Shown here in pieces: positions 1,115 to 60,065 of a stretch of DNA of 64,000 bases. The position numbers and the translations under genes were made by a program. Below the pieces are notes generated by a model that worked only from the letters and a program-made list of their open reading frames with translations, ran no database searches and was not told where the DNA came from. Numbering within the stretch: the stretch's first letter is position 1; each line of letters starts with the position of its first letter. This DNA comes from a virus: IMG/VR virus record IMGVR_UViG_3300045538_000426, positions 58,970-122,969 of that record; one strand, given 5' to 3'.

Positions 1115-1986
1115 ATTACAGAAAATTACTTCCGTTTCACGATGACGTTAAAGTCATGACGCAGTTTGGCATGCTTCCTCTTTCCGTGATGGAGTTTTCC
1201 AATGATGATAAATGGGACATGGCTTATTTTAAACAAGACGATTCCGAAAAGCGAAGAAGCGACGATTGTGAGTATCTTTCCGGATTGGGGATGAGCGAGT
1301 TTAGCAGTGCTATCTGTGAATTTATTGTAAAGTATTGGAGTTTGGAGAATGCCAACGTCGTTGACCCGTTCGCCGGGCGTTCAACTAGAGCCATAATAAG
1401 TTCAAAGTTGGGTAGGAATTACCAAGGTTACGAAATTTCACCACACACTTTCAATCGTAGTTTGGAACAATACAAAGTCGCGGGGGTAAATCCATTGCTT
1501 CATTTGTCAGATGGTCGGTATATGTTAGAAACCGAAAATGACTTCGCCCACCTCGTCATGACGTGTCCTCCGTATGGATCGATCGAAAAGTATGAGAGTG
1601 TCCCGGGACAATTAAGCGACATTAGAAAATACGACGAGTTTCTCTCTAACATAAGTGTTTGTATATCCAATATATACAGAGTTTTAAAGCCAGGAGGGTT
1701 CTGTTGTTGGGTGGTAGCTGATTGGAGAGATGGTCATGGATACCATCAGTTCAGTAACGACAGCATTCAATTGTTTAAAATGAACGGATTGATACCTCAC
1801 GACACGGTTATTATAAAGAACAATTCTCCATTTGCCGCACTTCAAGCGGGCAAGGCAGCTGCTAAACGGATAACCTCAAAGACACATGAATATCTATTGG
1901 TCTTCCGCAAGGAAGGTGAGCTGAATATAGACGGATTAAAACTAACGGAAATAAACAAATCGGCAAATGCTTTTTTTGAATTATGA
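1111..1986 (+). CDS. DNA amino-methyltransferase (N4-C/N6-A)
   Basis: SAM-binding DPFAGRST followed by catalytic TCPPY motif. Confidence 0.9.
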   Translation: MNYRKLLPFHDDVKVMTQFGMLPLSVMEFSNDDKWDMAYFKQDDSEKRRSDDCEYLSGLGMSEFSSAICEFIVKYWSLENANVVDPFAGRSTRAIISSKLGRNYQGYEISPHTFNRSLEQYKVAGVNPLLHLSDGRYMLETENDFAHLVMTCPPYGSIEKYESVPGQLSDIRKYDEFLSNISVCISNIYRVLKPGGFCCWVVADWRDGHGYHQFSNDSIQLFKMNGLIPHDTVIIKNNSPFAALQAGKAAAKRITSKTHEYLLVFRKEGELNIDGLKLTEINKSANAFFEL

Positions 1987-2138
1987 GAATGTCAGATACG
2001 ATTTTACTTGAATGGGAGGATTTGGTACTAGATTTTATAAAGATAGGATTTACCAGAGTTGAAGCAAGAATTTGTGCCACTGCAATAATGGAAGATAGGT
2101 ATAAAAAATTTACAACCCTCGATGATGTGGTAGACTGA
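1983..2138 (+). CDS. small hypothetical protein (51 aa)
   Basis: Hand-translated MRMSDTILLEW...DDVVD*; ATGA overlap with upstream stop. Confidence 0.55.
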   Translation: MRMSDTILLEWEDLVLDFIKIGFTRVEARICATAIMEDRYKKFTTLDDVVD

Positions 2139-22040: not shown

Positions 22041-25000
22041 TCAATTTACAAATACCATCTCATTGCTTAGTATTAATATATGAGTGTATCTTTCCCAACT
22101 ATTAAGCTCTCGGTCGGATTTTTTCAATGGTCCTTTGAAATCTAATTTTGAATCCCAAGTGACCGGTGTGATTGAATTCACGTCTTTTATCTCCGATACC
22201 TTTATTACCAGTGTATAATCTTTATTAAAATTGGTTTCATTTGCCATCACGAACTCCAATTTGTCATTCACGTTTATGGTGAGGTCGAGGTTGAACGGAA
22301 CTTCAGCGGGTTTGTTCAATACAACTTGAGTTTGTATCACGCCGTTTTTATAAACAAACAACTTCGTCACGTCGCCTGGTTTACCAACAACACCCACGGA
22401 ACCCGAGACTGTGAACGTTCCGCTTCTAGGTGAAATCCACTGACGGGAAGGTTTTATACTTGTATTTTTTGACAACGAACCACCGGTTCGGTTTATATTG
22501 ACTCCCTTGAAAAATTCATTGGTAGAACTATAAATGTCTCGATTAAACGATTGAAACTCGAAAAAGTTGGATGTTGATTTTGTTTTGTCATTTGTGACGC
22601 GGTATCCATACTTCCAATTATACTCCTTTTTTACATCCGACATATCTTCCTTCATCGCACCTTCGATGTAACGAATTCCGATTTTGATTTCCAAATCAGA
22701 CGGTTCTCGTTGGAAGCAGATTCTATACAATGTTCTAATTTTATCTTCCTCTGTTATTATACGGACGAATTCCGGCCTAGATACCATGTTTCTAACTTGT
22801 TCGATTACCATGGCGTTATTCATCAAGAACAATGCTTGTTTCGGAACAGTGGTCTGGAATCTTCTTCCCGTGGTCATTTCGGGAGTAGCAAAGTCGAACG
22901 TTGTGAATACTTCCGGCAGACGACCTCTATCAACTAATCCATATACTGTTCTACGAGTAGAATACTCTCCACCAGCAGAAGCAATCAAATTGACCGACTG
23001 ACCGCCCATATTCGTGTCTAATTTCCCACCCAAGAATAAAATGGTATCCCTTAACGTTTCAAATCCAATTCGGGTGGTGTTCATTTTCCAGTGAAGTCGA
23101 TTATATGGGTCAATTAAAGACTTTCTGCCGTCACTATTGGATAACTGACGGTATGTTGAGGAATTCATAATAAGCCTGTGCATATCTTTCACCGACCATC
23201 CGTTTTTAATAAATGTGTAAGCCAGGTAGTTCAGTAATTCATAATGAACTGGTTTCGGTGTATTGATTCCGAAATCATCCACGGACGTTACCAATCCCTC
23301 ACCAAAATGGAATTGCCAAATTCGATTGATGATAACCCGTGACGTAAGTGGGTTGAGTGGATTTGCGATACTCTTTGCCAATTCAAGTCTTCCACTTCCA
23401 TTGGTGAAAAGATTTGGATTAAGATAATCAAACGTCGATATAAAACGCCTCGTTACTATCGGTCCACGAGTGCCGGGATCACCTTTGATTAACACGGGCG
23501 AATCGGTTGCTCTCGGTTTATCACCCAATGCCATTGCTCTAGGCGGAGTCGATGGGTGGGCGATTTCGTGAGTGATTAATTTTCCACGTTGTTGTCTGAG
23601 TTCATTGTCATACTGCATCGTTTTTTGATTACTGGCATAGAATCTCGGAAACGAGTCACGGTCTATGTCAAGTGGACCTCCATTTTTAAAAATTGCTGAG
23701 ATGAATCCTTCCAATCCAACCGTGTTAGTCGGCGTCACACTCACAGTAATGACTGCGTTGTGATATGCTGACGCCAAATCTTTCATGTTCTTTATCACGC
23801 CTATCTTTTTTATGTGGGATAGGAGATATGGGTTTACGTTAGTTCCGTTCTCTGATATAAACGTAGAGAATTCCTCTTTGAATTTGGTATCGTCTACGTT
23901 ATACATCGAACCGAATGGTAAAAATACAGCTGACGTCGGAGTTACAGAAGACTTCTTCGGCACTTTTGGCGTGGATTGAACTGCTACCCCAGCATCGTTC
24001 GAAACAACTGTAACTTCCATTCCACCCCTCATATTTGGTTGACGGACATTTATCATCGACGTCCACCTCTGAATCATTCTTATGTTCAGACCGGAGTCTC
24101 GGATGTAATCGGTTCTGTTAGATGACGCCACTGAATTTAGAGCATATCCACCATACACATTTTTGAAAGTGTTTGTTTTAAATTCGTTTAGTGCGGCAAG
24201 GTAACGAGAGTTTATGAAACCCTCAATCTCTCCTTCTATCACAGTTCGTTTGTTTAAATAATCCTTGTAACCACTCGTCTCCACTACGGGATTTAGGAGA
24301 GGTTTTTCGGAATCATTTGGAAAATATGAACTATTCAACACTCCATGTAGAGCATAATAATCTTTTGTGCTGATCGGGTCGAACTTGTGGTCATGGCAAC
24401 GAGCACAAACAACCGTTGTGGCCATGAATCCTTTGAATATTACATCTATTTGGTCGTCAATAATGTCATTGGCGTTTCCGGAATTTTTACCAAGGGTCAG
24501 AAATCCAAGTCCCGCTAAATCTGGCCGTTTAATATCGTCCAATTTATCTCCGGCTATCTGCTCTAATATGAATCGGTTGAATGGTTTGTTTTCGTTAAAA
24601 CTTCGGATAACATAATCACGGTAGGTGTAAGAGTATGTGTAACGAGGTTCTCGATTTCCATTAACTGTTCCAGTGGTGTCGCTGTATCTGGCAGTATCCA
24701 ACCAGTGCCTTCCCCACCTTTCGCCATACATGGGATTGTCTAACAATCGGTCTATTAGTTTGGAATATGCATCTGAGGAGGAATCCGATAAAAACAATTC
24801 CACGTCTTTTTCGGAAGGCGGCAGACCTATCAAGTCAAAATACGCTCGTCGAATTAAAATCTTTTTGTCAGCTATCTGTGACGGCATCAGATTAGTTTTT
24901 GCAAGTTCTGTGAATACAAAGTTATCGATTGGGTTTGATATCCATTTACTAGATGACTTCGGTATCTCCGGCAATGTCAAAGGCTTGTAAGCCCAATGTT

Positions 25001-25406
25001 CTCTGGATTCTTTACCTAAGTCGACTAACTTTGTTTTTTCCACTCGTGGATCAGGTGCGCCATTTTTAATCCATGTCTCAAAATCTGATATTACCTGTGG
25101 AGATAATTTCCCATCGGGCGGCATTTGCAGATCTTTATCTGAATATCGCATAGCCTTTATAATCAAACTCTGCTCTATGTCGTTTGGAACCACGGCCGGC
25201 CCGTTTTCTCCTCCCTTTAAGGATGCGTCTCTGTTATCCAATAACAGCTGGCCCTTAGCCTTCTTCCCCTCGGCGCTGTGACACTTATAACATTCCTTGA
25301 TTAAAACTGGACGGATTTTCTTCTCAAAGAAGTCAGATTCATCTTTAGTGATTGCTGTGACGTTTAATGTCAGCAGATAAATGCACAATAGTATAATTTT
25401 GTTCAT
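22041..25406 (-). CDS. planctomycete cytochrome c protein (PSCyt1 + DUF1549 + DUF1553)
   Basis: Signal peptide, FFEKKIRPVL, CYKCH, YGERWGRHWLD, CARCHDHKFDP, NPLTSRVIINRIWQ. Confidence 0.92.
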   Translation of the reverse strand: MNKIILLCIYLLTLNVTAITKDESDFFEKKIRPVLIKECYKCHSAEGKKAKGQLLLDNRDASLKGGENGPAVVPNDIEQSLIIKAMRYSDKDLQMPPDGKLSPQVISDFETWIKNGAPDPRVEKTKLVDLGKESREHWAYKPLTLPEIPKSSSKWISNPIDNFVFTELAKTNLMPSQIADKKILIRRAYFDLIGLPPSEKDVELFLSDSSSDAYSKLIDRLLDNPMYGERWGRHWLDTARYSDTTGTVNGNREPRYTYSYTYRDYVIRSFNENKPFNRFILEQIAGDKLDDIKRPDLAGLGFLTLGKNSGNANDIIDDQIDVIFKGFMATTVVCARCHDHKFDPISTKDYYALHGVLNSSYFPNDSEKPLLNPVVETSGYKDYLNKRTVIEGEIEGFINSRYLAALNEFKTNTFKNVYGGYALNSVASSNRTDYIRDSGLNIRMIQRWTSMINVRQPNMRGGMEVTVVSNDAGVAVQSTPKVPKKSSVTPTSAVFLPFGSMYNVDDTKFKEEFSTFISENGTNVNPYLLSHIKKIGVIKNMKDLASAYHNAVITVSVTPTNTVGLEGFISAIFKNGGPLDIDRDSFPRFYASNQKTMQYDNELRQQRGKLITHEIAHPSTPPRAMALGDKPRATDSPVLIKGDPGTRGPIVTRRFISTFDYLNPNLFTNGSGRLELAKSIANPLNPLTSRVIINRIWQFHFGEGLVTSVDDFGINTPKPVHYELLNYLAYTFIKNGWSVKDMHRLIMNSSTYRQLSNSDGRKSLIDPYNRLHWKMNTTRIGFETLRDTILFLGGKLDTNMGGQSVNLIASAGGEYSTRRTVYGLVDRGRLPEVFTTFDFATPEMTTGRRFQTTVPKQALFLMNNAMVIEQVRNMVSRPEFVRIITEEDKIRTLYRICFQREPSDLEIKIGIRYIEGAMKEDMSDVKKEYNWKYGYRVTNDKTKSTSNFFEFQSFNRDIYSSTNEFFKGVNINRTGGSLSKNTSIKPSRQWISPRSGTFTVSGSVGVVGKPGDVTKLFVYKNGVIQTQVVLNKPAEVPFNLDLTINVNDKLEFVMANETNFNKDYTLVIKVSEIKDVNSITPVTWDSKLDFKGPLKKSDRELNSWERYTHILILSNEMVFVN

Positions 25407-25438
25407 AATTTATTAACCGAACGACGTGCGTTCTTTGA

Positions 25439-26827
25439 TTAGGCGATTACCTTCGTTGCAACTTCACCGAAAACATCCGTGAGGCGGAAATCTCTTCCAT
25501 TATAACGATAAGAAAGTTTCTTATGGTCGTATCCGGTCAATCGGAGAATGGTAGCATGTAGATCGTGAACCGACATTTTATCCTCGACGACTTGTCCACC
25601 GAATTCGTCAGTTGCACCATATACTGTGCCACCCTTGACACCACCGCCGACCAATACAGAAGACATAGCACGGTTCCAGTGACTTCTTCCGAATCCATTG
25701 GCTCCACCGACACCATCACGAGCAGGTGTTCGTCCGAACTCGCCTGTCATGACGATTAGAGTGGAATCTAATAGACCACGGGATTTCAAGTCTTGGATAA
25801 GAGCTGCAATCGGTCCGTCCACTTGGTCAGCTGCATTTTTAAGAGAACGGCTGATTCCGTCGTGGGTATCCCATCCACCAGTCCACACTTGAACGAATCG
25901 GACTCCCTTTTCAACCAATCTACGAGCAATAAGCATTTGTTTTCCTTGACTCGTGGTTCCATATGAGTCACGGACTGATTGAGACTCTTTGCTTATATCG
26001 AATACGTCAGTGGCCTCGGTCTGCATCTTGAATGCTAGTTCGAAACTCTGAATACGTGCGTCAAATGCCTCGTCCTTTTGAAAATTCTGACGGTGGATTT
26101 CATTGAGAGATGATAATGTGTCTAATTGACTACGTTGCTCTTTGAGAGACGCATATTGACTTTTGATGTTTTGAATCATCTTATCAACCGATCCAAGTGA
26201 CGTGTCAATCGGCGTTCCCTGATACATTCCTGGGAGGAAAGAACTTCCGAAATTTTGTGTTCCACCGGTTGGCATTCCACCGGAACGGAGACTGATGAAT
26301 GCTGGAAGGTTGTCGTTTCCGCTTCCCAGTCCATATACCACCCACGAACCCAAACTCGGTCGTACCAATCGAAGATTTCCGGTATTCATGAAAATCGTCG
26401 CTGTTTCGTGTGCTGGAACGTCGGTTGTCATTCCACGGAGAACCGCTGCGTGGTCAATGTGTTGTCCAATCTTCGAGAACACTTCACTGACTTCGATTCC
26501 AGATTTTCCACACTTATTGAACTTGAATGGAGATCCACATGCAAGTCCACCCATTCCAGGAAGAGGCTGACCGTCCATTTCTACCAATTTTGGCTTCGGA
26601 TCCCACGTATCAATGTGGGATTGGCCGCCGCTGAAGAAAATGTGGATGATATGTTTTGCTTTAGATGGGAAATGAGTGGCGACACCTTGTGCACCAGACA
26701 AGTCTCCCTCGAAAAGAGATGTCGCTCCCAACATTCCCATTCCCATGCCAAATTTGGATAAGAATTGTCGCTTGGTCATGATTAAATCCAACGGGGATAC
26801 GGAGTCTTGGTTACAGTATTCTTTCAT
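25439..26827 (-). CDS. DUF1501 family protein (Tat-like signal)
   Basis: TKRQFL, GGQSHIDTWDPKP, ARRLVEKGVRFVQ, GWDTH, GEFGRTP, DFRLTDVFGEV. Confidence 0.92.
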   Translation of the reverse strand: MKEYCNQDSVSPLDLIMTKRQFLSKFGMGMGMLGATSLFEGDLSGAQGVATHFPSKAKHIIHIFFSGGQSHIDTWDPKPKLVEMDGQPLPGMGGLACGSPFKFNKCGKSGIEVSEVFSKIGQHIDHAAVLRGMTTDVPAHETATIFMNTGNLRLVRPSLGSWVVYGLGSGNDNLPAFISLRSGGMPTGGTQNFGSSFLPGMYQGTPIDTSLGSVDKMIQNIKSQYASLKEQRSQLDTLSSLNEIHRQNFQKDEAFDARIQSFELAFKMQTEATDVFDISKESQSVRDSYGTTSQGKQMLIARRLVEKGVRFVQVWTGGWDTHDGISRSLKNAADQVDGPIAALIQDLKSRGLLDSTLIVMTGEFGRTPARDGVGGANGFGRSHWNRAMSSVLVGGGVKGGTVYGATDEFGGQVVEDKMSVHDLHATILRLTGYDHKKLSYRYNGRDFRLTDVFGEVATKVIA

Positions 26828-26884
26828 AGTGATTATGGTGTTTAGTATAACTATCAAATTGTGGAGTAAAGAAATGAATAAAAT

Positions 26885-46218: not shown

Positions 46219-46292
46219 GCGGGTATGATGTAATGGTAGCCTATAACTTTGCCAAAGTTGATGCGAGGGTTCGATTCCCTCTACCCGCTCCA
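46219..46292 (+). tRNA. tRNA-Gly(GCC)
   Basis: Cloverleaf, loop TTGCCAA, encoded CCA. Confidence 0.95.
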
Positions 46293-46303
46293 GTAAATTT
46301 AAT

Positions 46304-46378
46304 GGGAGTATAGCTCAGAGGAAGAGCAGGTCCTTTACACGGACAAGGTCGGGATTTCAAAATTCTCTACTCCTACCA
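46304..46378 (+). tRNA. tRNA-Val(TAC)
   Basis: Loop TTTACAC, CCA; atypical T stem. Confidence 0.85.
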
Positions 46379-46474
46379 TTTCAAAAAAAGTAAGGGTTCG
46401 ATTCCCCTGTTCGTCAATGGCCGCTAAATGAAAATAGCCAGTGTAGTTTATGGAGAACGTTTTTGAAATTAAAT

Positions 46475-46551
46475 GGCCTCGTCGTCTACGAATGGATATA
46501 GGATTCTGGATTCTCAATCCGGAGAACTCGGTTCGACTCCGAGCGGGGCTA
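46475..46551 (+). tRNA. tRNA-Glu(CTC)
   Basis: ctgga-TTCTCAA-tccgg; no CCA. Confidence 0.9.
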
Positions 46552-46859
46552 CAGTAGTTAAGGCAAAGTATCCTTTATAATCCTACGCCACACGTACTGT
46601 GGATATGGAAACTTGACAGCTGGAGAGAAAGCACCAATTTAAAAACACCGTCTCTGCATGGAGACGTGAGATATGCCACACACGGGCGATAGTAGTCGGT
46701 TTACGATATGAACAAAATTTTGACTGTAATGGTCACTATTCAAAAGCCGTATAAACTCCATCAATTTAAATCACGGAAGTTAGGGTTCGAGGTCCTTGGG
46801 TCTTCTTGTAGGGAAGACACTTAATGTAAACGGCAGCATAACGTGGTTTGAATATTTTT

Positions 46860-46934
46860 GGGGTGCTGGTGATAATGGTAGCACAGTAGCTTTGCAAGCT
46901 TCGGGTAAGGGTTCGATTCCCTTGCGCTCCACCA
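46860..46934 (+). tRNA. tRNA-Ala(TGC)
   Basis: G3-U70 pair, loop TTTGCAA, CCA. Confidence 0.92.
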
Positions 46935-46936
46935 AT

Positions 46937-47009
46937 CGGTTCGTAGGATAATGGTTATTCCGCCTGCTTTGGGAGCAGGATATTGTGAGTTCGAGTCTCA
47001 CCGAGCCGA
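46937..47009 (+). tRNA. tRNA-Pro(TGG)
   Basis: cctgc-TTTGGGA-gcagg, C1-G72, A73. Confidence 0.92.
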
Positions 47010-47032
47010 CCCGTGTTAGTAGTGTAAATAAA

Positions 47033-47103
47033 CAGTCATAGGTGTTTCGGTAGCATGCAAGTTCTGGAAACTTGGGGGATCCGTTCGACTCGGATATGGC
47101 TGA
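47033..47103 (+). tRNA. tRNA-Pro(TGG), atypical C33/A37
   Basis: cagtcat/atggctg acceptor, caagt-TCTGGAA-acttg, T arm atccg-TTCGACT-cggat. Confidence 0.75.
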
Positions 47104-47172
47104 CAGCGTAGCGCCGGGTTGGATATTGCTCCAGCGGTGATGTGTTAGTGTTAACACCCGGCGGTCACGTAT

Positions 47173-47246
47173 GCTCAGGTGATGTAACTGGAAAACATCC
47201 GGGTTTTAGAAGCCTGGTTTTGTGGGTTCAACTCCCACCTTGAGCA
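47173..47246 (+). tRNA. tRNA-Leu(TAG), short variable loop
   Basis: cgggt-TTTAGAA-gcctg, 5-nt variable region, A73. Confidence 0.8.
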
Positions 47247-47269
47247 CCTTAATTCAGCTGAATTTTAAT

Positions 47270-47347
47270 GGTCACGTAGCCCAATTGGCAGGAGGCAACA
47301 GTTTCAAAAACTGTACAGTGTCGGTTCAAATCCGACCGTGACCACCA
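47270..47347 (+). tRNA. tRNA-Leu(CAA), short variable loop
   Basis: acagt-TTCAAAA-actgt, CCA. Confidence 0.85.
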
Positions 47348-47408
47348 CAGCCCAAAGGCCATTCTTCCTTCGTTTTATACGAATAGAATCTTTGGTGTGT
47401 TTCAAAAT

Positions 47409-47481
47409 GCGGATGTAGCTCAATTGGCAGAGCGCTTGCCTTCCAAGCAGGCTGTTGTGGGTTCAACTCCCATCATCCGCT
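47409..47481 (+). tRNA. tRNA-Gly(TCC)
   Basis: cttgc-CTTCCAA-gcagg, U73. Confidence 0.93.
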
Positions 47482-47492
47482 CAGATAAATTT

Positions 47493-47583
47493 GGTCGATG
47501 TTCCCTATGGCCGTCTGTAAAACGGTTGCATAATAATAAATAGGGCGGACATGCGAGAGGTTCGACTCCTTCATTGACCACCA
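47493..47583 (+). tRNA. D-armless tRNA-Tyr(GTA)-like RNA
   Basis: 7-bp acceptor + ACCA, gccgt-CTGTAAA-acggt, T loop TTCGACT; no D stem. Confidence 0.65.
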
Positions 47584-47678
47584 AACATCACGCTCACCCT
47601 GTATTACACAGCCTATAGCTAGGGCCATATAATGGTGTATTAACCGATTGGATCGGACGTGCCTCTGATGTCTTTGAT

Positions 47679-47764
47679 TGCGGAGACAAGCCGTGGGATG
47701 CTAACTGCGCTCATAACGCAGGCGACGAAAGTCTCTATGGACGGTTCGACTCCGTCCTCCGCTA
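47679..47764 (+). tRNA. tRNA-Met(CAT), initiator-like, long variable arm
   Basis: U1xU72 mismatch, A11-U24, ctgcg-CTCATAA-cgcag, variable hairpin gac-gaaa-gtc. Confidence 0.75.
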
Positions 47765-47931
47765 CATTTTAAACAGGCCAGCGTTTCGGGCTAGCCTGGT
47801 GAAACGAGATAGATTTCTGGAGTAGGGCACGAAACAGAAGAACATCGGTGAAATCCTCGGGAAACCATTTCTTGACTCTTACGGAGATTGATGTAAGATG
47901 TTCAATGTCGGTTGTGAGAGACTCTTTAATT

Positions 47932-48022
47932 GGTTCCATGATGTAATGGTAACATGGCAGACTTATAATCTGTATATGCTCTAGATTGGAGCGCTATCTC
48001 GGTTCGACTCCGGGTGGAACCA
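47932..48022 (+). tRNA. tRNA-Ile(TAT) with long variable arm
   Basis: gcaga-CTTATAA-tctgt; 24-nt extra arm gctct-agatt-ggagc. Confidence 0.8.
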
Positions 48023-48488
48023 CCTTCGAATGATTTGTGACTTTTAGACACATTTCAATAAACTCTTGGGGAGTCATATTAAATTTGGATTGATTGACTA
48101 TTCTTTTGGTTATTGCCAAGTTAGAGAGAGAACTTTCTCCTCCCCTAGAAGCAGGTAGAATATGGTCAAGACTAAAATCATCCTTATCCAATAGATTGAT
48201 TGGTTCTCCAGTCAAATAACATTTTGGCGATGGTCCCAATTTCTTCTTTAAATCCAAAAGAGAGAAATCTACAACTACATTTTTTCGACTTGACCGTAGA
48301 AATTCTTTCCGTTTATAAAACAGAGGATCCGTGGTCTGTTTCTTTTTTGTATATTTATCTTGATTCCTCTTCCTATTTGGATTAAGGTTGTAGTGAACGG
48401 TCCACTCAGAACAACCTAATGTTCTCGCTATTTGTTTATATGTTTTTCCCGACGAGTGAAGTTCTTTAATTTGAGATTGATAATTCAT
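47994..48488 (-). CDS. HTH + HNH homing-type endonuclease
   Basis: KTYKQIARTLGCSEWTVHY; CYLTG...SLDHILPASRGG...N. Confidence 0.85.
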   Translation of the reverse strand: MNYQSQIKELHSSGKTYKQIARTLGCSEWTVHYNLNPNRKRNQDKYTKKKQTTDPLFYKRKEFLRSSRKNVVVDFSLLDLKKKLGPSPKCYLTGEPINLLDKDDFSLDHILPASRGGESSLSNLAITKRIVNQSKFNMTPQEFIEMCLKVTNHSKVVPPGVEPR

Positions 48489-48558
48489 GATGTAAATTAC
48501 TTGTTGTAATATACATATCAAAAATAATAGAAATAGTTAGATATTTCGATAATAAAAT

Positions 48559-48640
48559 GGCCCTGTGACCTAATTGCGAATTGGCACAGCATACAGACTT
48601 AAAATCTGGAGTTTTACGAGTTCGAGTCTCGTCAGGGCTA
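48559..48640 (+). tRNA. tRNA-Leu(TAA), short variable loop
   Basis: Loop CTTAAAA, 6-nt variable region, enlarged D loop. Confidence 0.8.
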
Positions 48641-48652
48641 CCGTTTTCTTAT

Positions 48653-48766
48653 GCCTGTTATGCAGTGAGTTCGATTCTCATACATTCCATAGATGGGATG
48701 GCTGGTGCAGAAATGCTTTGGTTACGTGTTAGATCAACATAATCGGTTCAATTCCGATAATAGGTT
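48653..48766 (+). ncRNA. tRNA-shell RNA with two T-loop arms, no anticodon arm
   Basis: gcctgtt/aataggt acceptor; gtgag-TTCGATT-ctcat and atcgg-TTCAATT-ccgat. Confidence 0.55.
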
Positions 48767-49042
48767 CAGTTGAGTGTATATGACATAATGAATAACGTTT
48801 ATTTGTGTCAAAATGTGGAATAGATTGGGCACGAAACTTCGAATTGAGCTGACCAATCACACTTGACTTTTAGAATCTACGTTGGGCCGCACGGTTTTGG
48901 TTCCGATGTAAGCAGAGGCCGCGGGTGGTGTCCTCGGATGGGTTTAAGTCCCAGACCACCAAATTTAGAATTTCTAAACGAAATATACGATTCGCTGTGT
49001 AGGCTGAATTGTTCGTGTAGAAAAAACACAAAAAAAAAACAT

Positions 49043-49420
49043 ATGAATACATTAGTAAAATACAACGGCGTAACCTCAGACTTGTCAGACATCGTGGATA
49101 GATTTCACGATTGTTTTTGGTCAGATCCTGTGTTTCAACTAAATAGAAACTGGAGACCAACCGATGTATCGGAGACGGACAAATCTGTGGTTGTTGAGGT
49201 GGAACTCCCCCGCTTTAAACGAGAAGATGTAAAGGTGGAAGTTTCCAGCGGAAAATTGTCAATCATAGCAAAAAATCAAAAATCCTCCTACCTAAGAGAA
49301 TTTAGTTATACTGGGTTGGATCTTGACTTAGCTGACGTAAAGCTTCAAGACGGTGTTCTAAGAATTGAAATCCCAAAGATTTCTTCCGAGAAGACCAAGA
49401 AATATCTTGAAGTCAAATAA
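49043..49420 (+). CDS. small heat-shock protein (Hsp20)
   Basis: DVSETDKSVVVEVELPRF, ADVKLQDGVLRIEIPK. Confidence 0.9.
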   Translation: MNTLVKYNGVTSDLSDIVDRFHDCFWSDPVFQLNRNWRPTDVSETDKSVVVEVELPRFKREDVKVEVSSGKLSIIAKNQKSSYLREFSYTGLDLDLADVKLQDGVLRIEIPKISSEKTKKYLEVK

Positions 49421-49426
49421 CAATAT

Positions 49427-49445
49427 GGACCGGTCTTTCCGGTCC
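49427..49445 (+). terminator. GC-rich hairpin after hsp20
   Basis: ggaccgg-tcttt-ccggtcc; no clear U-tract. Confidence 0.45.
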
Positions 49446-49449
49446 TAAT

Positions 49450-49524
49450 GGGAATGTAACTCAACGGTAGAGTGTTGCGGTGACAACGCAAAAGTAGTTG
49501 GTTCGACTCCAACCATTCCCACCA
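49450..49524 (+). tRNA. tRNA-Val(GAC)
   Basis: ttgcg-GTGACAA-cgcaa, CCA. Confidence 0.92.
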
Positions 49525-49611
49525 GATTGAAGAAAATGGTGCTAGATTTGAGAGGTAAACGTAACCCGCTCTTCCCCGATAGGGAAAAATTTCAAATCAC
49601 TTCAACATTTT

Positions 49612-49772
49612 GTAGATGTAGCGGTGGAGAAGTGCCACTAGAACATGAGTAGTTCGTAAATAGGTGTGTGATGTTCCCGACAGTGGGGAAAAACGGAAAC
49701 GGCCGTAACAACGGTGTAGCCGCCCGCGATAGTCAAAAATACGCCATGGAGGTTCAATCCTTCCCATCTACA
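49612..49772 (+). ncRNA. 161-nt tRNA-shell RNA with inserted structured domain
   Basis: Perfect gtagatg/catctac acceptor, A73, T arm ggagg-TTCAATC-cttcc. Confidence 0.6.
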
Positions 49773-49782
49773 ATCCCTTTAT

Positions 49783-49860
49783 GGTCACGTAGCCCAATTG
49801 GCAGGAGGCGCAACATTGAGCGTGTTGACAGTGTGAGTTCAAATCTCACCGTGACTACCA
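49783..49860 (+). tRNA. tRNA-Leu(GAG), short variable loop
   Basis: caaca-TTGAGCG-tgttg; paralogue of 47270; CCA. Confidence 0.85.
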
Positions 49861-49937
49861 CGATGCAGAGGTCGGTAATTACAGTAATGGATTCTTTGTA
49901 AAGGCCTTCAAAAGAAACCAACCGTAGGCAACAATTT

Positions 49938-50245
49938 GAAAACGTGGTGCGTGATAAAACGCAATGGGAACTAGACCACAACGATCCGGGACGAAAGAAA
50001 AGGATTGATAAATTATAGTTCTCATGTCGATTGAGACGGTGCGAAAATCCGATGGTGTCGCGACAGACATATTGAACATACCAAAATCGATTGTAAGTGT
50101 TCAGTCTATGGGGAACCAAGCGGTGAGGAGATAGGGGTGGATGGCAAGCTGTGACGGCCGACCTCATTACTATCCAACAATCACAAGGCACCCATAACGC
50201 AGGGCCAGTCTTAGACATATGCGGGTCCGAATCCCGCCGTTTTCA
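49938..50245 (+). ncRNA. about 308-nt RNA: tRNA-Met-like shell with large insertion
   Basis: gaaaacg/cgttttc acceptor; 3' half cataacgcagg + variable hairpin + T arm, paralogous to the 47679 tRNA. Confidence 0.5.
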
Positions 50246-50282
50246 TCATTGACTTTAGAAAATCACACTATATCATAGATTC

Positions 50283-50993
50283 ATGTCATACAACAAAAAC
50301 AACGTAGGTACAGCGATGCACACGGTTCGGAATGTGAACCAACTTTCCTCGGAACATACTCCTCAAATGACAGTTGAGGAAAGGTTAAGAGAAGGGGCTG
50401 TTACACACGTTCGATTGAAAGCCAGAAATTCTACTGATGCAAGTATTTTAGAATCTCTGTCATCGAAATTGGTAAAATCTGTATCAGATGAACAAAAAAA
50501 GGAAAATATCCACAGATGGTTCAAGGACAAAATTAAGAATTCTTATTACGATTTTTTCAAATCAGACGAGGGCAGATTGGATATTAAAATTTGGTGTCAT
50601 AACTGTCAGACTTACATGAAAAGTTCCGAATTAAATTGGGACGTTGAAGGAAACGCCTACTGTAAAAAATACCCAATATGTTATTCACAGTATTACGAAT
50701 TTGATTTGTGGTTAATTTCACAAATTTGGAATATTCCACTTAAAGTAAAGTATTCAAATGAAGAAGAACAATACTTTGAACTTTTGAAGAGACAAGACCA
50801 GATTGAAAAGAACATATCGTTCCTTTACCGTAAAGGTATAGAAAATCAACGAATGAAAGATTATAGATTAGAATCTAAGGAAGTGAGAAAAAAGATAAAG
50901 GAATTTGAGAACATCATAGCAGACTCCTTACACGAACAGTTTCCTCCTGGCGCTCCTGAGGTAGAGATGTTGTCTTCATTACAACATTTTTAA
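50283..50993 (+). CDS. hypothetical protein with zinc ribbon
   Basis: CHNC...CKKYPIC; promoter TTGACT-N16-TATCAT upstream. Confidence 0.7.
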   Translation: MSYNKNNVGTAMHTVRNVNQLSSEHTPQMTVEERLREGAVTHVRLKARNSTDASILESLSSKLVKSVSDEQKKENIHRWFKDKIKNSYYDFFKSDEGRLDIKIWCHNCQTYMKSSELNWDVEGNAYCKKYPICYSQYYEFDLWLISQIWNIPLKVKYSNEEEQYFELLKRQDQIEKNISFLYRKGIENQRMKDYRLESKEVRKKIKEFENIIADSLHEQFPPGAPEVEMLSSLQHF

Positions 50994-51071
50994 TTGACCT
51001 TCAATTTCCGACTCCTCTGGGATCATAAAGACTATATGCAGCCATCTAAGCGATACAGGTCGGAACAATTT

Positions 51072-51100
51072 GATTAGAAGGAAACTTCTAATCGATTTTA
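51072..51100 (+). terminator. GAAA-capped hairpin, terminator-like
   Basis: gattagaag-gaaa-cttctaatc then gatttta. Confidence 0.5.
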
Positions 51101-51101
51101 T

Positions 51102-51169
51102 AGCGTGGCTACTGGGTAGTGCGGAAACTCCAAATCTCTGCTTCGTCGGTTCGATTCCGACTCACGCTG
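51102..51169 (+). tRNA. tRNA-Trp(CCA), minimal D arm
   Basis: Loop CTCCAAA, G73, T arm gtcgg-TTCGATT-ccgac. Confidence 0.8.
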
Positions 51170-51191
51170 CCGTGTCAAAGTAGTTTATAAT

Positions 51192-51275
51192 TGGTATGTG
51201 GCGTAATGGCAGCCGCGCTAGTTTTAGAAGCTAGTGGAGAAATCCGTGCAGGTTCAAGTCCTGTCATACCAACCA
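51192..51275 (+). tRNA. tRNA-Leu(TAG), normal long variable arm
   Basis: ctagt-TTTAGAA-gctag, gga-gaaa-tcc arm, CCA. Confidence 0.92.
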
Positions 51276-51276
51276 T

Positions 51277-51352
51277 CGGGGTATAATGTCAATGGTAGAC
51301 GGTCTGGTCCGGAGCCAGAAGGTTGCGAGTTCAAGTCCCGCTACCCCGACCA
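51277..51352 (+). tRNA. tRNA-Pro(CGG), atypical C33/A37
   Basis: tctgg-TCCGGAG-ccaga, C1-G72, A73, CCA. Confidence 0.8.
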
Positions 51353-51495
51353 GTGTTAGTTGGGTATTCATCAAATTAAAAACTCAACTGCATGTTTAAT
51401 TGGATTTAGAGCGAAAACGTAAATCTGGGTCGTGGTGCTGAACCCGGTTATAACCAAACCAGCCACGGGGTGTCTATTTCCTCTAAAAATAGAAT

Positions 51496-51567
51496 GGCCC
51501 ATTCGTCTAGTAGTTAGGACGGATCCCTTTCAAGAATTAGAAGACGGAGCGTAACCGTCATGGGCTA
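51496..51567 (+). tRNA. tRNA-Glu(TTC), non-canonical T loop
   Basis: Loop CTTTCAA; T arm gacgg-AGCGTAA-ccgtc. Confidence 0.8.
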
Positions 51568-51568
51568 C

Positions 51569-51893
51569 AGTTTAACACGGTCGATCTATAGCGGGTGTAG
51601 AAATACATCTGAGGAAGTTCGCGCCACCAAAGCAGATGATTGGGAGAATATGTTCACTCATTAGAGTGATAAAATAGACGGTGTATAATCGGAGTGAAAG
51701 TCTCTGAGGGATGGTCGGTTACAAAATAATCCAATACACGGCCGTTAGTTCCGACCACATATTCATTAATACCACATATTAGGTGCAAGCCAAACAGAAC
51801 CGAGGGTAGTGCTTCCCGTTATGGTAGGTTCGGGTTGGCGCATAGTCAAATTATAGAATAAAACAGAAGCGCGGCTACATGATACGTTAAACT
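51569..51893 (+). ncRNA. rnpB: RNase P RNA (catalytic subunit, A-type, lacking P18)
   Basis: GAGGAAGTTCGCGC and AACAGAAGCGCGGCTAC form P4; P1, P2, P3, P5 (cacc/ggtg+CAAG), P6 (aagca/tgctt), P15 and P16 all pair; GTGAAAG S-domain motif. Confidence 0.9.
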
Positions 51894-51896
51894 AAT

Positions 51897-51973
51897 GGTC
51901 AGGTGATGTAATTGGAAAACATCTTTGTCTCAGAAACAGAGTTTTGTGGGTTCAACTCCCATCTTGACCACCA
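51897..51973 (+). tRNA. tRNA-Leu(CAG), short variable loop
   Basis: tttgt-CTCAGAA-acaga; paralogue of 47173; CCA. Confidence 0.85.
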
Positions 51974-51974
51974 T

Positions 51975-52142
51975 ATGAAATCGAAACAAGACAGAATCAA
52001 ACATGAGACTGAATACGTCGCATTTCTTGAGAAACGGTTAGCAAGCAAAAATTTTCATAATAACTCGACCAACGGGGAAATTGAAACTACCAAGGTAAAG
52101 TTAAAGAAAGCAAAGTTGGTTTTGAGAATGTTGGCGAATTAA
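51975..52142 (+). CDS. small basic hypothetical protein
   Basis: ATG 1 nt after tRNA CCA; MKSKQDRIKHE... Confidence 0.6.
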   Translation: MKSKQDRIKHETEYVAFLEKRLASKNFHNNSTNGEIETTKVKLKKAKLVLRMLAN

Positions 52143-52144
52143 AT

Positions 52145-52232
52145 GGGCGGTTATCCCGTAGGGGTAGCGGTACGCGCTGTAAACGCGTTGTCTTAACGGA
52201 CTCGGGTGGTTCAACTCCATCACCGCCCACCA
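52145..52232 (+). tRNA. tRNA-Tyr(GTA)
   Basis: acgcg-CTGTAAA-cgcgt, long variable arm, CCA. Confidence 0.93.
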
Positions 52233-53558: not shown

Positions 53559-53648
53559 GGGAGTATATTGGCGGTGTTTCCTAAACACTTAGTGCATAAT
53601 TGGATAGCCGGAAGGCGGATGTGGGTTCGAGTCCCTCTACTCCCACCA
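53559..53648 (+). tRNA. aberrant tRNA(CAT)-like RNA
   Basis: Perfect gggagta/tactccc + ACCA, T loop TTCGAGT, 7-bp D-like hairpin, weak anticodon stem, loop TGCATAA. Confidence 0.55.
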
Positions 53649-55415: not shown

Positions 55416-55676
55416 ATGGTTGATAGAGATGGTATAAAACAACTCAGCGTCTATCTTGATCTGTGTGGTGAACGACAGGTTTTGCTCGAAACCGTCTGGT
55501 TGGCATTTCGTTATAAAGACACTCACAAGGGATGGGACGTAAATAAGTGCTTTGAAGAAGCTCTTTGGAATGTCATGCTTGCCGAAGCCAAACGTGAGGT
55601 TAAAGTTGACCTAAAAGCCACCGTGGATAAAATTAACAGTATTTCTTCAATGGGTGCTGTCAAGAAATCCGGTTGA
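55416..55676 (+). CDS. hypothetical protein
   Basis: 86-aa ORF. Confidence 0.6.
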   Translation: MVDRDGIKQLSVYLDLCGERQVLLETVWLAFRYKDTHKGWDVNKCFEEALWNVMLAEAKREVKVDLKATVDKINSISSMGAVKKSG

Positions 55677-55700
55677 CAGTTTTAGAATCCGGTGTATAGT
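55673..55700 (+). promoter_or_regulatory. sigma70-type promoter upstream of the large ncRNA
   Basis: TTGACA-N16-TATAGT. Confidence 0.75.
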
Positions 55701-55885
55701 TATTTCAAGGTTAGTTGAGTGTAAGCGAAAATCCTTAAATTAAAAACTCGACGGTGTGATAAATACCTAAAGTTATCCGTTTGCCAGTAACGACAATGCA
55801 GCAAGATTTGTGTGGTATTGACTTGACCACACCTTTTTATCGAATTTATGTCAAAATTCGACGCTTTGTAGATTGTTCTTTGTAG

Positions 55886-56692
55886 TAAGTAAAATTTGGG
55901 GGCCTGACCCCGTGAGATAACCCGTCGTAAGGCGGTAAAAGCAGAAACTCCCTAACGAGACTGCGCCGTAGCAATACGGACACTCAGGCAACTGACAAGA
56001 TCAGTGTCTTTCACTCAAAAGGTGGAAGTATGTCTGAAGCTGGATTGGGAAATGGTGACTGAGGGTAACACTGTAAGTCATCTACTAACGGCACCGCCGA
56101 GCTCTACCAGTTCCTTAACGGGAACAGCCAAGAATAAGATCTAAGTCAAACAAATAGATACAAGCCCGCAAGCAAGTGTTTATCTGTAGAAAGATAGAAA
56201 GTGGCCAGGGTAACCAGGACATAATCTTGAAATTCGGTGAAGTATCCGCAAGAGAAACACAAATGGTGTGTGGTATATTGGTTCCCAAAAGGAATTGATG
56301 TCACAAGTAACGCACGTCATTGTTAGGTGCATATTATATCCTTGGTAGATATTACATATTATACAAAAAGCAAAGTCGTTACTTGTGTTCGTCGAAAAGA
56401 ACGTAACTCTGAGGCCGTAAGGTAACTCAGACAACGAAGCGCTCGCAAGGTGTTAGTTGTTGATCCGAGTTTGGACGTGGTCCGCAAGACCTAATTGCTC
56501 GCAAGGCAACCGTTTGAATAGAGGTTGATTAGATGAACATTAAAGATGAAAAGCCTCATCTCTAAAAAGGCCGTTCTGTCAAATACAGACATAAACCGTA
56601 AGGTTGTGGATGTGGATATATCGGGAAAGCAGCCCGCAAGGTTGTAATAATCCGATTAAAGGTTGACACGAAACACTGTAGTCTCAGGTTTC
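55886..56692 (+). ncRNA. GOLLD-like giant structured RNA (boundaries approximate)
   Basis: About 0.8 kb without a credible ORF, more than 10 short GNRA-capped hairpins, set among tRNAs; segments gtgtggtatattggttcccaaaagg and ctgtagtctcagg resemble GOLLD as I recall it. Confidence 0.7.
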
Positions 56693-56756
56693 ATTTTAAA
56701 AATTAGTCTCTTTTAGGGTTTAAAACACTATTTATAGTTAAAGGAACATTAAACCA

Positions 56757-57164
56757 ATGCCAAACGTATATAGTATTAAAACATGTATAAATTGTGGAAT
56801 CTCTAAGAGAAGTAATGGAAAAAAGTTTTGTGGACCGAAGTGTCAACATGATTTCAATTACAAAGAAAAGATAAAATTGTGGTTAGACGGAAAGCACGAT
56901 GGGATGCGGGGAAAAACATCCACGGCACATTGGATTAAAAGATATATCACCGAAGTACGTGGACATCAATGTGAATGTTGTAAAATTAAAGAGTGGATGG
57001 ATAGGTCGATATCTTTAGATTTAGAACATAAAGACGGAAATTTTAAAAACAATAAAATTGACAATCTTGGTCTAATTTGTCCGAACTGTCACAGTCAGAC
57101 GGATACATATAAAGGTAGAAACAAAAAAGGAAGGCCTCGTTCTAAGTATTATAGAGGATTGTAA
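56757..57164 (+). CDS. HNH endonuclease
   Basis: CINC...FCGPKC; LEHKDGNFKNNKIDNLGLICPNCH. Confidence 0.9.
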   Translation: MPNVYSIKTCINCGISKRSNGKKFCGPKCQHDFNYKEKIKLWLDGKHDGMRGKTSTAHWIKRYITEVRGHQCECCKIKEWMDRSISLDLEHKDGNFKNNKIDNLGLICPNCHSQTDTYKGRNKKGRPRSKYYRGL

Positions 57165-57165
57165 T

Positions 57166-57252
57166 GGATAGGTGGCTGAGTGGATTAAAGCGGTGCTCTT
57201 GAAAAGCACAGGGGCCTAAAAACCCCCGGGGGTTCGAATCCCTCTCTATCCT
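57166..57252 (+). tRNA. tRNA-Ser(TGA)
   Basis: gtgct-CTTGAAA-agcac, long variable arm, U73. Confidence 0.9.
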
Positions 57253-57279
57253 CCGTAGTTAGGTAAGTGGTGTAAATAT

Positions 57280-57368
57280 GGAACGGTGGCCGAGTCTGGC
57301 TTATGGCGGAAGTTTGCTAAACTTCTGAGGCCTAAAAACCTCCACAGGTTCGAATCCTGTTCGTTCCG
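57280..57368 (+). tRNA. tRNA-Ser(GCT)
   Basis: gaagt-TTGCTAA-acttc, long variable arm, G73. Confidence 0.92.
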
Positions 57369-57371
57369 CAG

Positions 57372-57457: not shown

Positions 57458-57835
57458 ATGGAAACCGATTTGAAAGACATTGTGAAGGAATTTGGAGCTT
57501 TTATAGTAAAGAAGCTGGCCATCAAAAAACCATTCAAAATCCAGCTCACAGTCAATCGGGACGACTTGAAGACGTATGCTCATTATAGCCCCACTGAGGG
57601 AATTGTTAAAGTATATGTCAAAGGTAGGTCAACCGCTGATGTACTTCGTTCAATTGCTCATGAAATGGTCCATCATCAACAAAATCAGAATGGGAAATTA
57701 AAACAAGACCCTAAAAACCCGATTCCAGATGTCGGCGGTGAGATTGAGGATGAAGCAAATGCCGTAGCTGGTCAGTTGGTTAAAGAATTCGGTTACAAGT
57801 TCAAAGACAGTGCCGGAAAGAGCATCTACGAATAA
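57458..57835 (+). CDS. zincin-like metallopeptidase-domain protein
   Basis: IAHEMVHHQQ (HExxH), downstream EDEANA. Confidence 0.7.
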   Translation: METDLKDIVKEFGAFIVKKLAIKKPFKIQLTVNRDDLKTYAHYSPTEGIVKVYVKGRSTADVLRSIAHEMVHHQQNQNGKLKQDPKNPIPDVGGEIEDEANAVAGQLVKEFGYKFKDSAGKSIYE

Positions 57836-58656: not shown

Positions 58657-60065
58657 AAGAAATCGACGTAGTTTTGGTGTGATTCCAATGTCAAATCACC
58701 CTCGTTAATTTTGTTACCTTCGGAATCTTTAGCTTTGACTCTCGTTAAAATAGTCTGTTTCTTTGAACCGTATTTTTGATCCCCAATTTTATGATCTTTT
58801 ACGGTTCCAACGACAGAATACTTTTTATTCTCCTCGATTCCTATATTGTTGCTACTGAACCACACCAGTAGATTTCCCAAATCATCTTTGAAATTGTATA
58901 TGGTCATGTAACCATAGGCAGATTCATAACCACGAATTGAGGTGACGGTAACATCGATAGATAATTTCTGTCCAATAACACCGACAAACTCACTCGGTCT
59001 TTGTGCCTCCGATTCAGCTTTCTTCTTTATCATTTCCTTGTCAATCAAATAGGATACCAATAATCCTCCCATGTATCCTAGATTCTTTATACCCACCGTC
59101 GATGACTTGGAAAGCACGGCTAGGTTATTGAAGTAATTAGCCATATCCGGCTTCTTCTCCGCATCCAATTTAAAATCATGAGTTTTAATCCATTCCAAAA
59201 TCCCATCAGACATTTCTTTAGCTTCCGGTTTCATTTCCTCGGCTCGAATTATGAAATCGGGAGTTTTATGTGAGTTTGGATTTCTACGATAGAACATGAT
59301 ATTGCTAGCGACGTCCGAAGTGCTATCCAAATACTCTCCGGTTGTATCGGCCACTTCTCTAGCCTTCTTTTTTGAAATATACTTCTTGCCCATCACCAAA
59401 TAAGCCAGCGACAGATAGAATATAATCTCTCCGATAGCATAATAATTACCACTGGAGCCCCCACGACCCATTCCGCCGGATTCAATCTCCTCCTCACTAA
59501 GTCCTCGTAGTTCTTCCAATATTTCCGCAAATCTAATTACTTTGCTTACACTGTCGATGGGAAGAAATCTCTTCAGACAGCCGCTTCCTACCGTCAATAG
59601 TTTGTTTTCCTTTACATCTTTAATGATGAAAGTGTTATGTCTTTCCCGTTTTGTTTTACAGACGTCACAGACGGAATCTGCATCACGGTATTCATCGGGC
59701 AAAGAAGAAATGCTGGCGTCCGGAGATATGTTTATCAAATTCCCAGAGTCGGTGTGTTCTATTTTAGCGATAAACTCAAATCCCTCGACTTGCGGTGACT
59801 TTCCTATAATTCTTACGGTGTATTGTTTTTTGAATTCGGATATATCCAAATCATCAGCGTTAGTTTTTACATTCTCTTCTTTTAGAACTTCCAATTTAAC
59901 GGCTTCCAATCCCCATTTAACTGCCTTCTTATTTATCTCATTTATTTTTGCTTTTAAGAAATTAAGTCCATTCTCACCGACTAAAATGTCGTCACGAGAA
60001 ACGTCCTCCACTCTGTTAATAGTGGATTCTGATATACGGACGATTAAATCTTTTAAGTTGATCAT
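58653..60065 (-). CDS. hypothetical protein with zinc ribbon and C-terminal OB-like domain
   Basis: CDVC, VGSGCL; FVGVIGQK...FKDDLGNLLVWFSS; start MINLK set by TATTTATT at 60069-76. Confidence 0.75.
   Translation of the reverse strand: MINLKDLIVRISESTINRVEDVSRDDILVGENGLNFLKAKINEINKKAVKWGLEAVKLEVLKEENVKTNADDLDISEFKKQYTVRIIGKSPQVEGFEFIAKIEHTDSGNLINISPDASISSLPDEYRDADSVCDVCKTKRERHNTFIIKDVKENKLLTVGSGCLKRFLPIDSVSKVIRFAEILEELRGLSEEEIESGGMGRGGSSGNYYAIGEIIFYLSLAYLVMGKKYISKKKAREVADTTGEYLDSTSDVASNIMFYRRNPNSHKTPDFIIRAEEMKPEAKEMSDGILEWIKTHDFKLDAEKKPDMANYFNNLAVLSKSSTVGIKNLGYMGGLLVSYLIDKEMIKKKAESEAQRPSEFVGVIGQKLSIDVTVTSIRGYESAYGYMTIYNFKDDLGNLLVWFSSNNIGIEENKKYSVVGTVKDHKIGDQKYGSKKQTILTRVKAKDSEGNKINEGDLTLESHQNYVDFF

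Follow-up and report, generated by a model that had tools for sequence, protein, structure and literature searches.

The window analysed here, a 64,000-nt stretch (positions 58,970 to 122,969) of the IMG/VR virus record IMGVR_UViG_3300045538_000426, carries on its plus strand a group of 18 tRNA genes, an RNase P-like element, a putative promoter followed by a large structured RNA, an HNH endonuclease gene, two tRNA-Ser genes and a gene for an HExxH-type protein (Table 1). The source record is a 122,969-bp virus contig with an estimated completeness of 41%, so that it probably derives from a phage of roughly 300 kb. Using cmscan with Rfam, we found a match to the GOLLD family (RF02032) at 56261-56690 (+), with a score of 216.9 bits (gathering score 150; E ~5e-60). 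The match is untruncated (model positions 1-416 of 416) and was recovered again when the whole record was searched, and neither ROOL nor any other large-RNA family gave a match in the whole window at E <= 0.1. The original prediction had named a GOLLD-like giant RNA of about 800 nt at 55886-56692 and had proposed the Rfam GOLLD and ROOL models as a check; with the GOLLD model matched in full above the cut-off, the family call was borne out. The association with phages and tRNA clusters that is established for GOLLD holds here too, considering the viral origin of the record and the tRNA genes on both sides. The GOLLD core spans 55866-56697 (832 nt), which the predicted interval fits well; with leader and promoter, conservation extends over 55662-56697. 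One refinement concerns the extent: a structured leader of about 165 nt, specific to this lineage, lies between the promoter and the predicted start. We conclude with high confidence that this locus of an uncultured large phage encodes a GOLLD RNA, as its identity and its architecture show.

Table 1. Features of the GOLLD locus and its surroundings (positions in the window)
Feature	Position	Strand	Basis or remark
tRNA genes (18)	46219-52232	+	3.5-9.6 kb upstream of GOLLD
RNase P-like RNA	51577-51887	+	RNaseP_arch, 36.4 bits, E 8e-7, sub-threshold (cut-off 84)
Putative sigma-70-type promoter	55673-55700	+	-35 TTGACA 55673-55678, 16-nt spacer, -10 TATAGT 55695-55700
Lineage-specific structured leader, ~165 nt	55701-55865	+	Covariation; R2 model
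GOLLD 5' domain	55866-56260	+	R1 model and covariation; GNRA-capped hairpins 55922-55935, 55966-55979, 55984-55995
Hairpin CCGTA-GCAA-TACGG	55966-55979	+	In sequence
Hairpin CAG-GCAA-CTG	55985-55994	+	In sequence
First hairpin of conserved 3' half	56261-56322	+	Rfam model 1-62, CAAAA loop (cmscan alignment)
AT-rich variable linker (J13/15 in literature naming)	56323-56383	+	Alignment to the ends of the L170 tRNA
Core of conserved GOLLD 3' domain	56384-56690	+	Rfam model 137-416
Hairpin GGTC-CGCAA-GACC	56479-56491	+	In sequence
Hairpin TTGCT-CGCAA-GGCAA	56497-56511	+	In sequence
Hairpin AACC-GTAA-GGTT	56594-56605	+	In sequence
U-rich conserved 3' tail	56691-56697	+	Homology with L037 and L170 ends here
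468-nt insertion relative to L037	56698-57165	+	Context, not part of the RNA
Free-standing HNH endonuclease ORF, 135 aa	56757-57164	+	PHROG HNH families, E 2e-23
tRNA-Ser(tga)	57166-57254	+	ARAGORN and Rfam
tRNA-Ser(gct)	57280-57369	+	ARAGORN and Rfam
125-aa protein with HEMVHH (HExxH-type) motif	57458-57835	+	78% identical to the 122-aa counterpart in L037

Employing a pattern for the conserved 3' end, we retrieved 45 viral contigs, 44 of which carried a GOLLD above the Rfam cut-off; a looser form of the pattern gave at least 120 matches. Mainstream viral GOLLDs scored about 307-333 bits with RF02032, whereas the window and the 174-kb contig L037 scored 211-217 bits, about 100 bits lower, which places them on a divergent branch. 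Over 55662-56697 the window and L037 share 88% identity, and the two are unrelated on both sides of this block. A pattern specific to the sub-lineage recovered L037 alone among the viral contigs; in metagenome contigs it led to two further members, L168 (224 bits) and L170 (214 bits). The metagenome search also returned L169, a chance match. The window, L037, L168 and L170 form a small sub-lineage. No match to 55600-56760 was found in the GenBank phage collection with blastn, and the 5' and 3' halves, searched with blastn and nhmmer against 45 and then ~165 GOLLD loci, found L037 and a faint match in L153 only. Such sequence-only searches are nearly empty because the family is held together by structure; covariance models were used instead. 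The GOLLD in the window is a somewhat divergent example of an already known RNA family that is abundant in viral metagenomes. Modest novelty lies in its leader, which is confined to this lineage, in the pair of extra hairpins, in linkers with an intact or an apparently decayed tRNA among close relatives, and in the HNH insertion.

The 3' domain is about 98% identical to that of L037. Relative to the Rfam model, the cmscan alignment showed several non-canonical pairs and two hairpin insertions, at ~56590-56608 (GUAA cap) and ~56627-56646 (GCAA cap). Between the GGGAA and TAATCC motifs there are 20 nt in the window versus 4-5 nt (rarely 10) in other viral GOLLDs among the matches listed. The two GNRA-capped insertions are specific to the lineage; they are maintained in the relatives, with one compensatory change in L168. 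The first hairpin of the 3' half carries one compensatory pair, GU to UA, in L168 and L170. At the other end, the RNA probably stops with the U-rich tail at 56691-56697, as judged from where homology ends; no clear intrinsic terminator was found after GOLLD.

The linker that leads from the first 3'-half hairpin to the long-range helix differs among the relatives. In L170 it holds an intact tRNA-Asp(AUC), and in L153, which belongs to another lineage, a tRNA-Cys. The linker of the window aligns to both ends of the L170 tRNA with ~37 central nucleotides missing, and neither ARAGORN nor Rfam called a tRNA in it. The linkers of L037 and L168 likewise lack the middle of the tRNA, and no tRNA was detectable there. 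The window linker therefore reads, from these alignments, like a decayed tRNA, the direction of change being our reading of them. The tRNA embedded in L170 (879-952, minus strand) has itself an unusual anticodon, AUC (Asp, A34), and a C-A mismatch in the acceptor stem.

RF02032 covers the 3' half of the RNA only, so a covariance model, R1, was built for the 5' block, which is 91-92% identical to L037 and L168 over 55866-56260. R1 represents 55890-56030 and was derived from the window, L037 and L168 alone. It matched about 70 other GOLLD loci over its full length (E 5e-5 to about 0.4). In 52 of the 53 matches with a locatable 3' motif, the R1 block shared the strand of GOLLD and preceded the motif by 701-810 nt; the median distance was 778 nt, and that in the window 771 nt. 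The lone exception was a second match, of 12 bits, in a locus that also holds a proper one. Taken singly the R1 matches are weak, but their fixed geometry is decisive. These results identified 55866-56260 as the canonical 5' domain of GOLLD.

Upstream of the core, homology with the relatives starts at ~55662, just before the -35 box. TTGACA-N16-TATAGT scored 11 of 12 in a promoter consensus scan. The window, L037 and L168 share both hexamers and the 16-nt distance between them, with different spacer sequences. This conservation supports the earlier proposal that the RNA has its own promoter, a candidate read from the DNA. In a promoter survey of other GOLLDs, the sites were scattered 38-355 nt upstream, many loci had none, and there was no common start. 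The leader downstream of the promoter is less conserved (72-83% identity to L037 and L168). At its 3' end there are two hairpins (55810-55832 and 55840-55861) and then a short U-rich run; the second hairpin, whose sequence is nearly a new one from contig to contig, retains its shape and precedes a run of 3-5 U. The stretch 55824-55866 varies in length, with 119 extra nucleotides in L168. This insertion (L168 ~1892-2010, minus strand) lies between leader and core, directly after the best terminator-like version of the last leader hairpin, and holds TTGACA-N16-TAAGAT ~89 nt upstream of the R1 block.

A second covariance model, R2, was made from the leader with the same number of sequences and the same information content as R1. 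Among the GOLLD loci it had no match beyond its three sources (the window, L037 and L168). R2 thus serves as a negative control for R1 and marks the leader as lineage-specific; the leader is absent from other GOLLDs. Compared with Rfam, the leader fell into no family, with one chance-level match at E <= 10.

All five hairpins named in the original prediction are present where it had placed them (Table 1). The core (55866-56697) contains four strict GNRA tetraloops with a closing stem of at least 4 bp, versus a same-strand background of 0.79 +/- 0.89 per 832-nt window; the maximum, 5, was at the tRNA/RNase P-like region. The hairpin CCGTA-GCAA-TACGG becomes CCACA-GTAA-TGTGG in L037 and CCATA-GTAA-TATGG in L168. 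RNAalifold applied to the window, L037, L168 and L170 predicted 250 pairs, 19 of which show pair-preserving changes on both sides. The counts that follow come from three to four close relatives, and the structure was derived from the same sequences, so that their power is limited: among the 24 variable pairs of the 5' domain, changes were compensatory in 10 and one-sided but compatible in 11, and 3 pairs were broken, versus 0-1 compensatory and 22-31 broken in slid-partner controls; the variable pairs of the leader comprised 7 compensatory, 6 compatible one-sided and 4 broken, versus 0-2 compensatory and 15-23 broken in the controls. In both segments, compensatory changes are far above the slid controls, and the covariation support that the prediction called for is present, if from few close relatives. 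Thermodynamically, the 5' domain gives a modest to weak signal (z = -1.73 on the plus strand and +1.15 on the minus strand). A helix joining 55702-55712 to 56226-56236 was predicted from two sequences and dropped in the four-sequence fold; the changes in L168 and L170 are A-U to G-U only.

It is extremely improbable that small proteins, or a single one, are encoded in this region and not an RNA. The longest ORF with an ATG, GTG or TTG start inside it encodes 84 aa and lies on the minus strand. The window does contain several open frames of 40-90 codons, but those of at least 40 codons from stop to stop all gain stops or frameshifts in L037, L168 or L170, except inside the near-identical 3' domain, where frames stay open and the comparison has no power; the strong covariance-model match also speaks against coding. 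With no frame conserved among the relatives, the earlier statement that the region holds no credible ORF stands. A decaying, non-functional GOLLD remnant might be suspected from the Rfam score, ~100 bits below the mainstream, and from the apparently degraded linker tRNA. Both domains are, however, kept in four contigs from different samples, with the promoter kept in the window, L037 and L168; compensatory changes, ~98% identity in the 3' domain and the maintenance of the extra hairpins, one with a compensatory change in L168, also argue against decay, and we consider a remnant very improbable.

Two other readings concern the leader. It could be a separate small RNA gene (~55707-55865) that has a promoter of its own and ends in a weak terminator, GOLLD being transcribed by read-through or from an unrecognised start. 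In line with this, the hairpin at the leader end is structurally conserved while its sequence differs in all three relatives, with 3-5 U behind it; the L168 version has the best U-run, followed by the 119-nt insertion with its promoter-like TTGACA-N16-TAAGAT before the GOLLD core; and, as R2 indicated, GOLLDs elsewhere do not include the leader. On the other hand, no promoter of at least 10 of 12 lies between leader and core in the window or L037, the hairpin of the window is AT-rich with just three U downstream, and in each of the three contigs leader and core are neighbours that share a strand. We regard a separate gene as possible though somewhat unlikely. Distinctly less likely is a cis-acting regulatory element (riboswitch-like, or a protein- or tRNA-sensing attenuator) that gates GOLLD transcription: the layout would be classic, from promoter through a conserved structured segment and a conserved hairpin with a U-run to the regulated gene, but the leader matched nothing in Rfam, T-box and riboswitches included, its U-tract is short, no alternative antiterminator pairing was demonstrated, and three sequences are all that is available. 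In the reading we prefer, the whole block is a GOLLD gene in which the leader precedes the core.

Downstream, the GOLLD gene adjoins tRNA genes. In L037, tRNA-Ser(tga) begins 2-3 nt after GOLLD and is followed by tRNA-Ser(gct) and the 122-aa HExxH protein. L168 has a class-II tRNA ~11 nt after GOLLD; Rfam recognised two class-II tRNA-like genes there, one of which is tRNA-Ser(gct) by ARAGORN. The HNH segment of the window is absent from both contigs, in which the tRNA directly follows GOLLD. It appears that a homing-endonuclease gene has been inserted here into a transcription unit of GOLLD and tRNAs. As for the HExxH protein, ten viral loci with more distant homologues had no GOLLD nearby or anywhere in their records.

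Upstream, the 18 tRNA genes are followed on the same strand by genes for a SpoU-type methylase and a pyrimidine-dimer glycosylase and by an 86-aa ORF (55416-55676). The long-arm tRNA at 52145-52232 (+) is tRNA-Tyr(gta) by ARAGORN and tRNA-Sec-like, below the cut-off, in Rfam, and at 53559-53648 (+) there is a weak match to the tmRNA model (16.6 bits). L037 and L168 carry a tRNA with a CTA anticodon (amber-suppressor type) upstream of the GOLLD promoter (L037 2659-2733; L168 2225-2300, minus strand), ~240 nt before it in the former and directly before it in the latter; in the window there is no CTA tRNA at this place and the 86-aa ORF is found instead. Elsewhere in the window (22041-26857, minus strand), a PSCyt1/PSCyt2/PSD1 protein (1121 aa) is encoded beside a DUF1501 protein (472 aa). 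Such a pair is typical of Planctomycetota and Verrucomicrobiota; here it may hint at the host, have been captured from a host or belong to host DNA within the contig.

The original prediction had also drawn attention to a nearby RNase P RNA. An element of this kind does lie 4.4 kb upstream of GOLLD, but as RNase P RNA it is a sub-threshold match only (36.4 bits versus a cut-off of 84). A sister phage (G036:C1:128581-128823) has a similar match of 34 bits ~7 kb upstream of its GOLLD, and with the archaeal model no RNase P-like RNA was found in three complete 321-kb mainstream GOLLD phages. Apparently, the co-occurrence is a trait of the lineage and not of GOLLD in general. The bacterial RNase P type A model found nothing in the record of the window or in four other GOLLD phages.

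From the sequence features described above, a course of expression can be proposed. Host RNA polymerase would start near 55707 and produce a primary transcript of ~990 nt, in which the leader (55701-55865) would be followed by the 5' domain, the first 3'-half hairpin, the linker and the 3' domain to ~56697. In the two relatives with adjoining tRNAs, the transcript would run straight into two tRNA-Ser genes. Since a tRNA abuts GOLLD there, we infer that RNase P, by cutting at the 5' end of the tRNA, would define the 3' end of GOLLD; in the present phage, the HNH homing-endonuclease gene separates GOLLD from the tRNAs. By analogy with GOLLDs of known structure, the RNA may fold into separate 5' and 3' domains and self-assemble without protein into a hollow dihedral cage of ~12-14 copies, in which rings would be built from the 3' domains and caps from the 5' domains, and the linker would point inward. 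Because the window RNA scores ~100 bits lower and has non-canonical pairs and two insertions, neither cage formation nor copy number should be assumed to be identical. It is a matter of speculation that the cage acts late in infection on tRNA-related or translation-related cargo.

As a further and quite unlikely possibility, which we put forward tentatively, the RNAs of the window, L037, L168 and L170 may be a structurally distinct GOLLD variant, in which the leader would be a cap module or a cis-gate and the two hairpins would alter ring contacts and copy number. If so, this variant and the linkers with present or decayed tRNAs would offer a series of natural forms with which to examine the contents of the cage. 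Whether or not such a variant exists, GOLLD RNAs are among the largest non-coding RNAs of bacteria and phages, and their protein-free cages were demonstrated recently. The copy described here brings no new principle; it defines a divergent sub-lineage, whose variants are convenient for testing how peripheral helices relate to cage stoichiometry and whether an embedded tRNA is cargo. As the locus illustrates, GOLLD genes appear to share transcription units with tRNA genes, and a homing-endonuclease insertion can split such units.

Cage assembly, the two-domain organisation, embedded tRNAs and the phage/tRNA-array context of GOLLD have been documented (PMC12286853, PMC12990946); its cellular function is given as unknown in both papers. 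The GOLLD of env-38, 833 nt long, forms a 14-mer cage with D7 symmetry as determined by cryo-EM (PDB 9MEE; Kretsch et al. 2025, PMC12286853). The window RNA resembles it in its environmental phage-type source, in a core of ~830 nt with a 5' domain of ~400 nt and a 3' domain of ~430 nt, in a 3' domain described by the same covariance model, in the variable linker, which points inward in the cage, and in adjoining tRNA genes. It differs in the two extra GNRA-capped 3' hairpins, in the ~165-nt leader and in a score ~100 bits below that of mainstream viral GOLLDs. The Streptococcus agalactiae GOLLD (700 nt) forms a 12-mer (PDB 9L0R), and its 3' domain alone mainly a decamer (PDB 9LMF) (PMC12990946). 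It belongs to the same family, and the change in cage copy number upon gain or loss of peripheral helices is relevant to the extra hairpins of the window; it is, however, a bacterial/prophage copy without several 5' helices, whereas the 5' block of the window matches the environmental type over its full length.

ROOL (~600 nt, 8-mer cage) is unrelated to GOLLD in sequence and fold, and the window has no match to it at E <= 0.1; the two are alike as large, ornate, cage-forming RNAs associated with phages and tRNAs. In Mycolicibacterium, a GOLLD with a tRNA-Phe embedded in the J13/15 linker has been described (Morgado et al. 2020, as cited in PMC12990946). The window, L037 and L168 differ from such tRNA-embedded GOLLDs in lacking the middle of the tRNA, whereas L170 (tRNA-Asp) and L153 (tRNA-Cys) hold a tRNA at exactly the J13/15 position.
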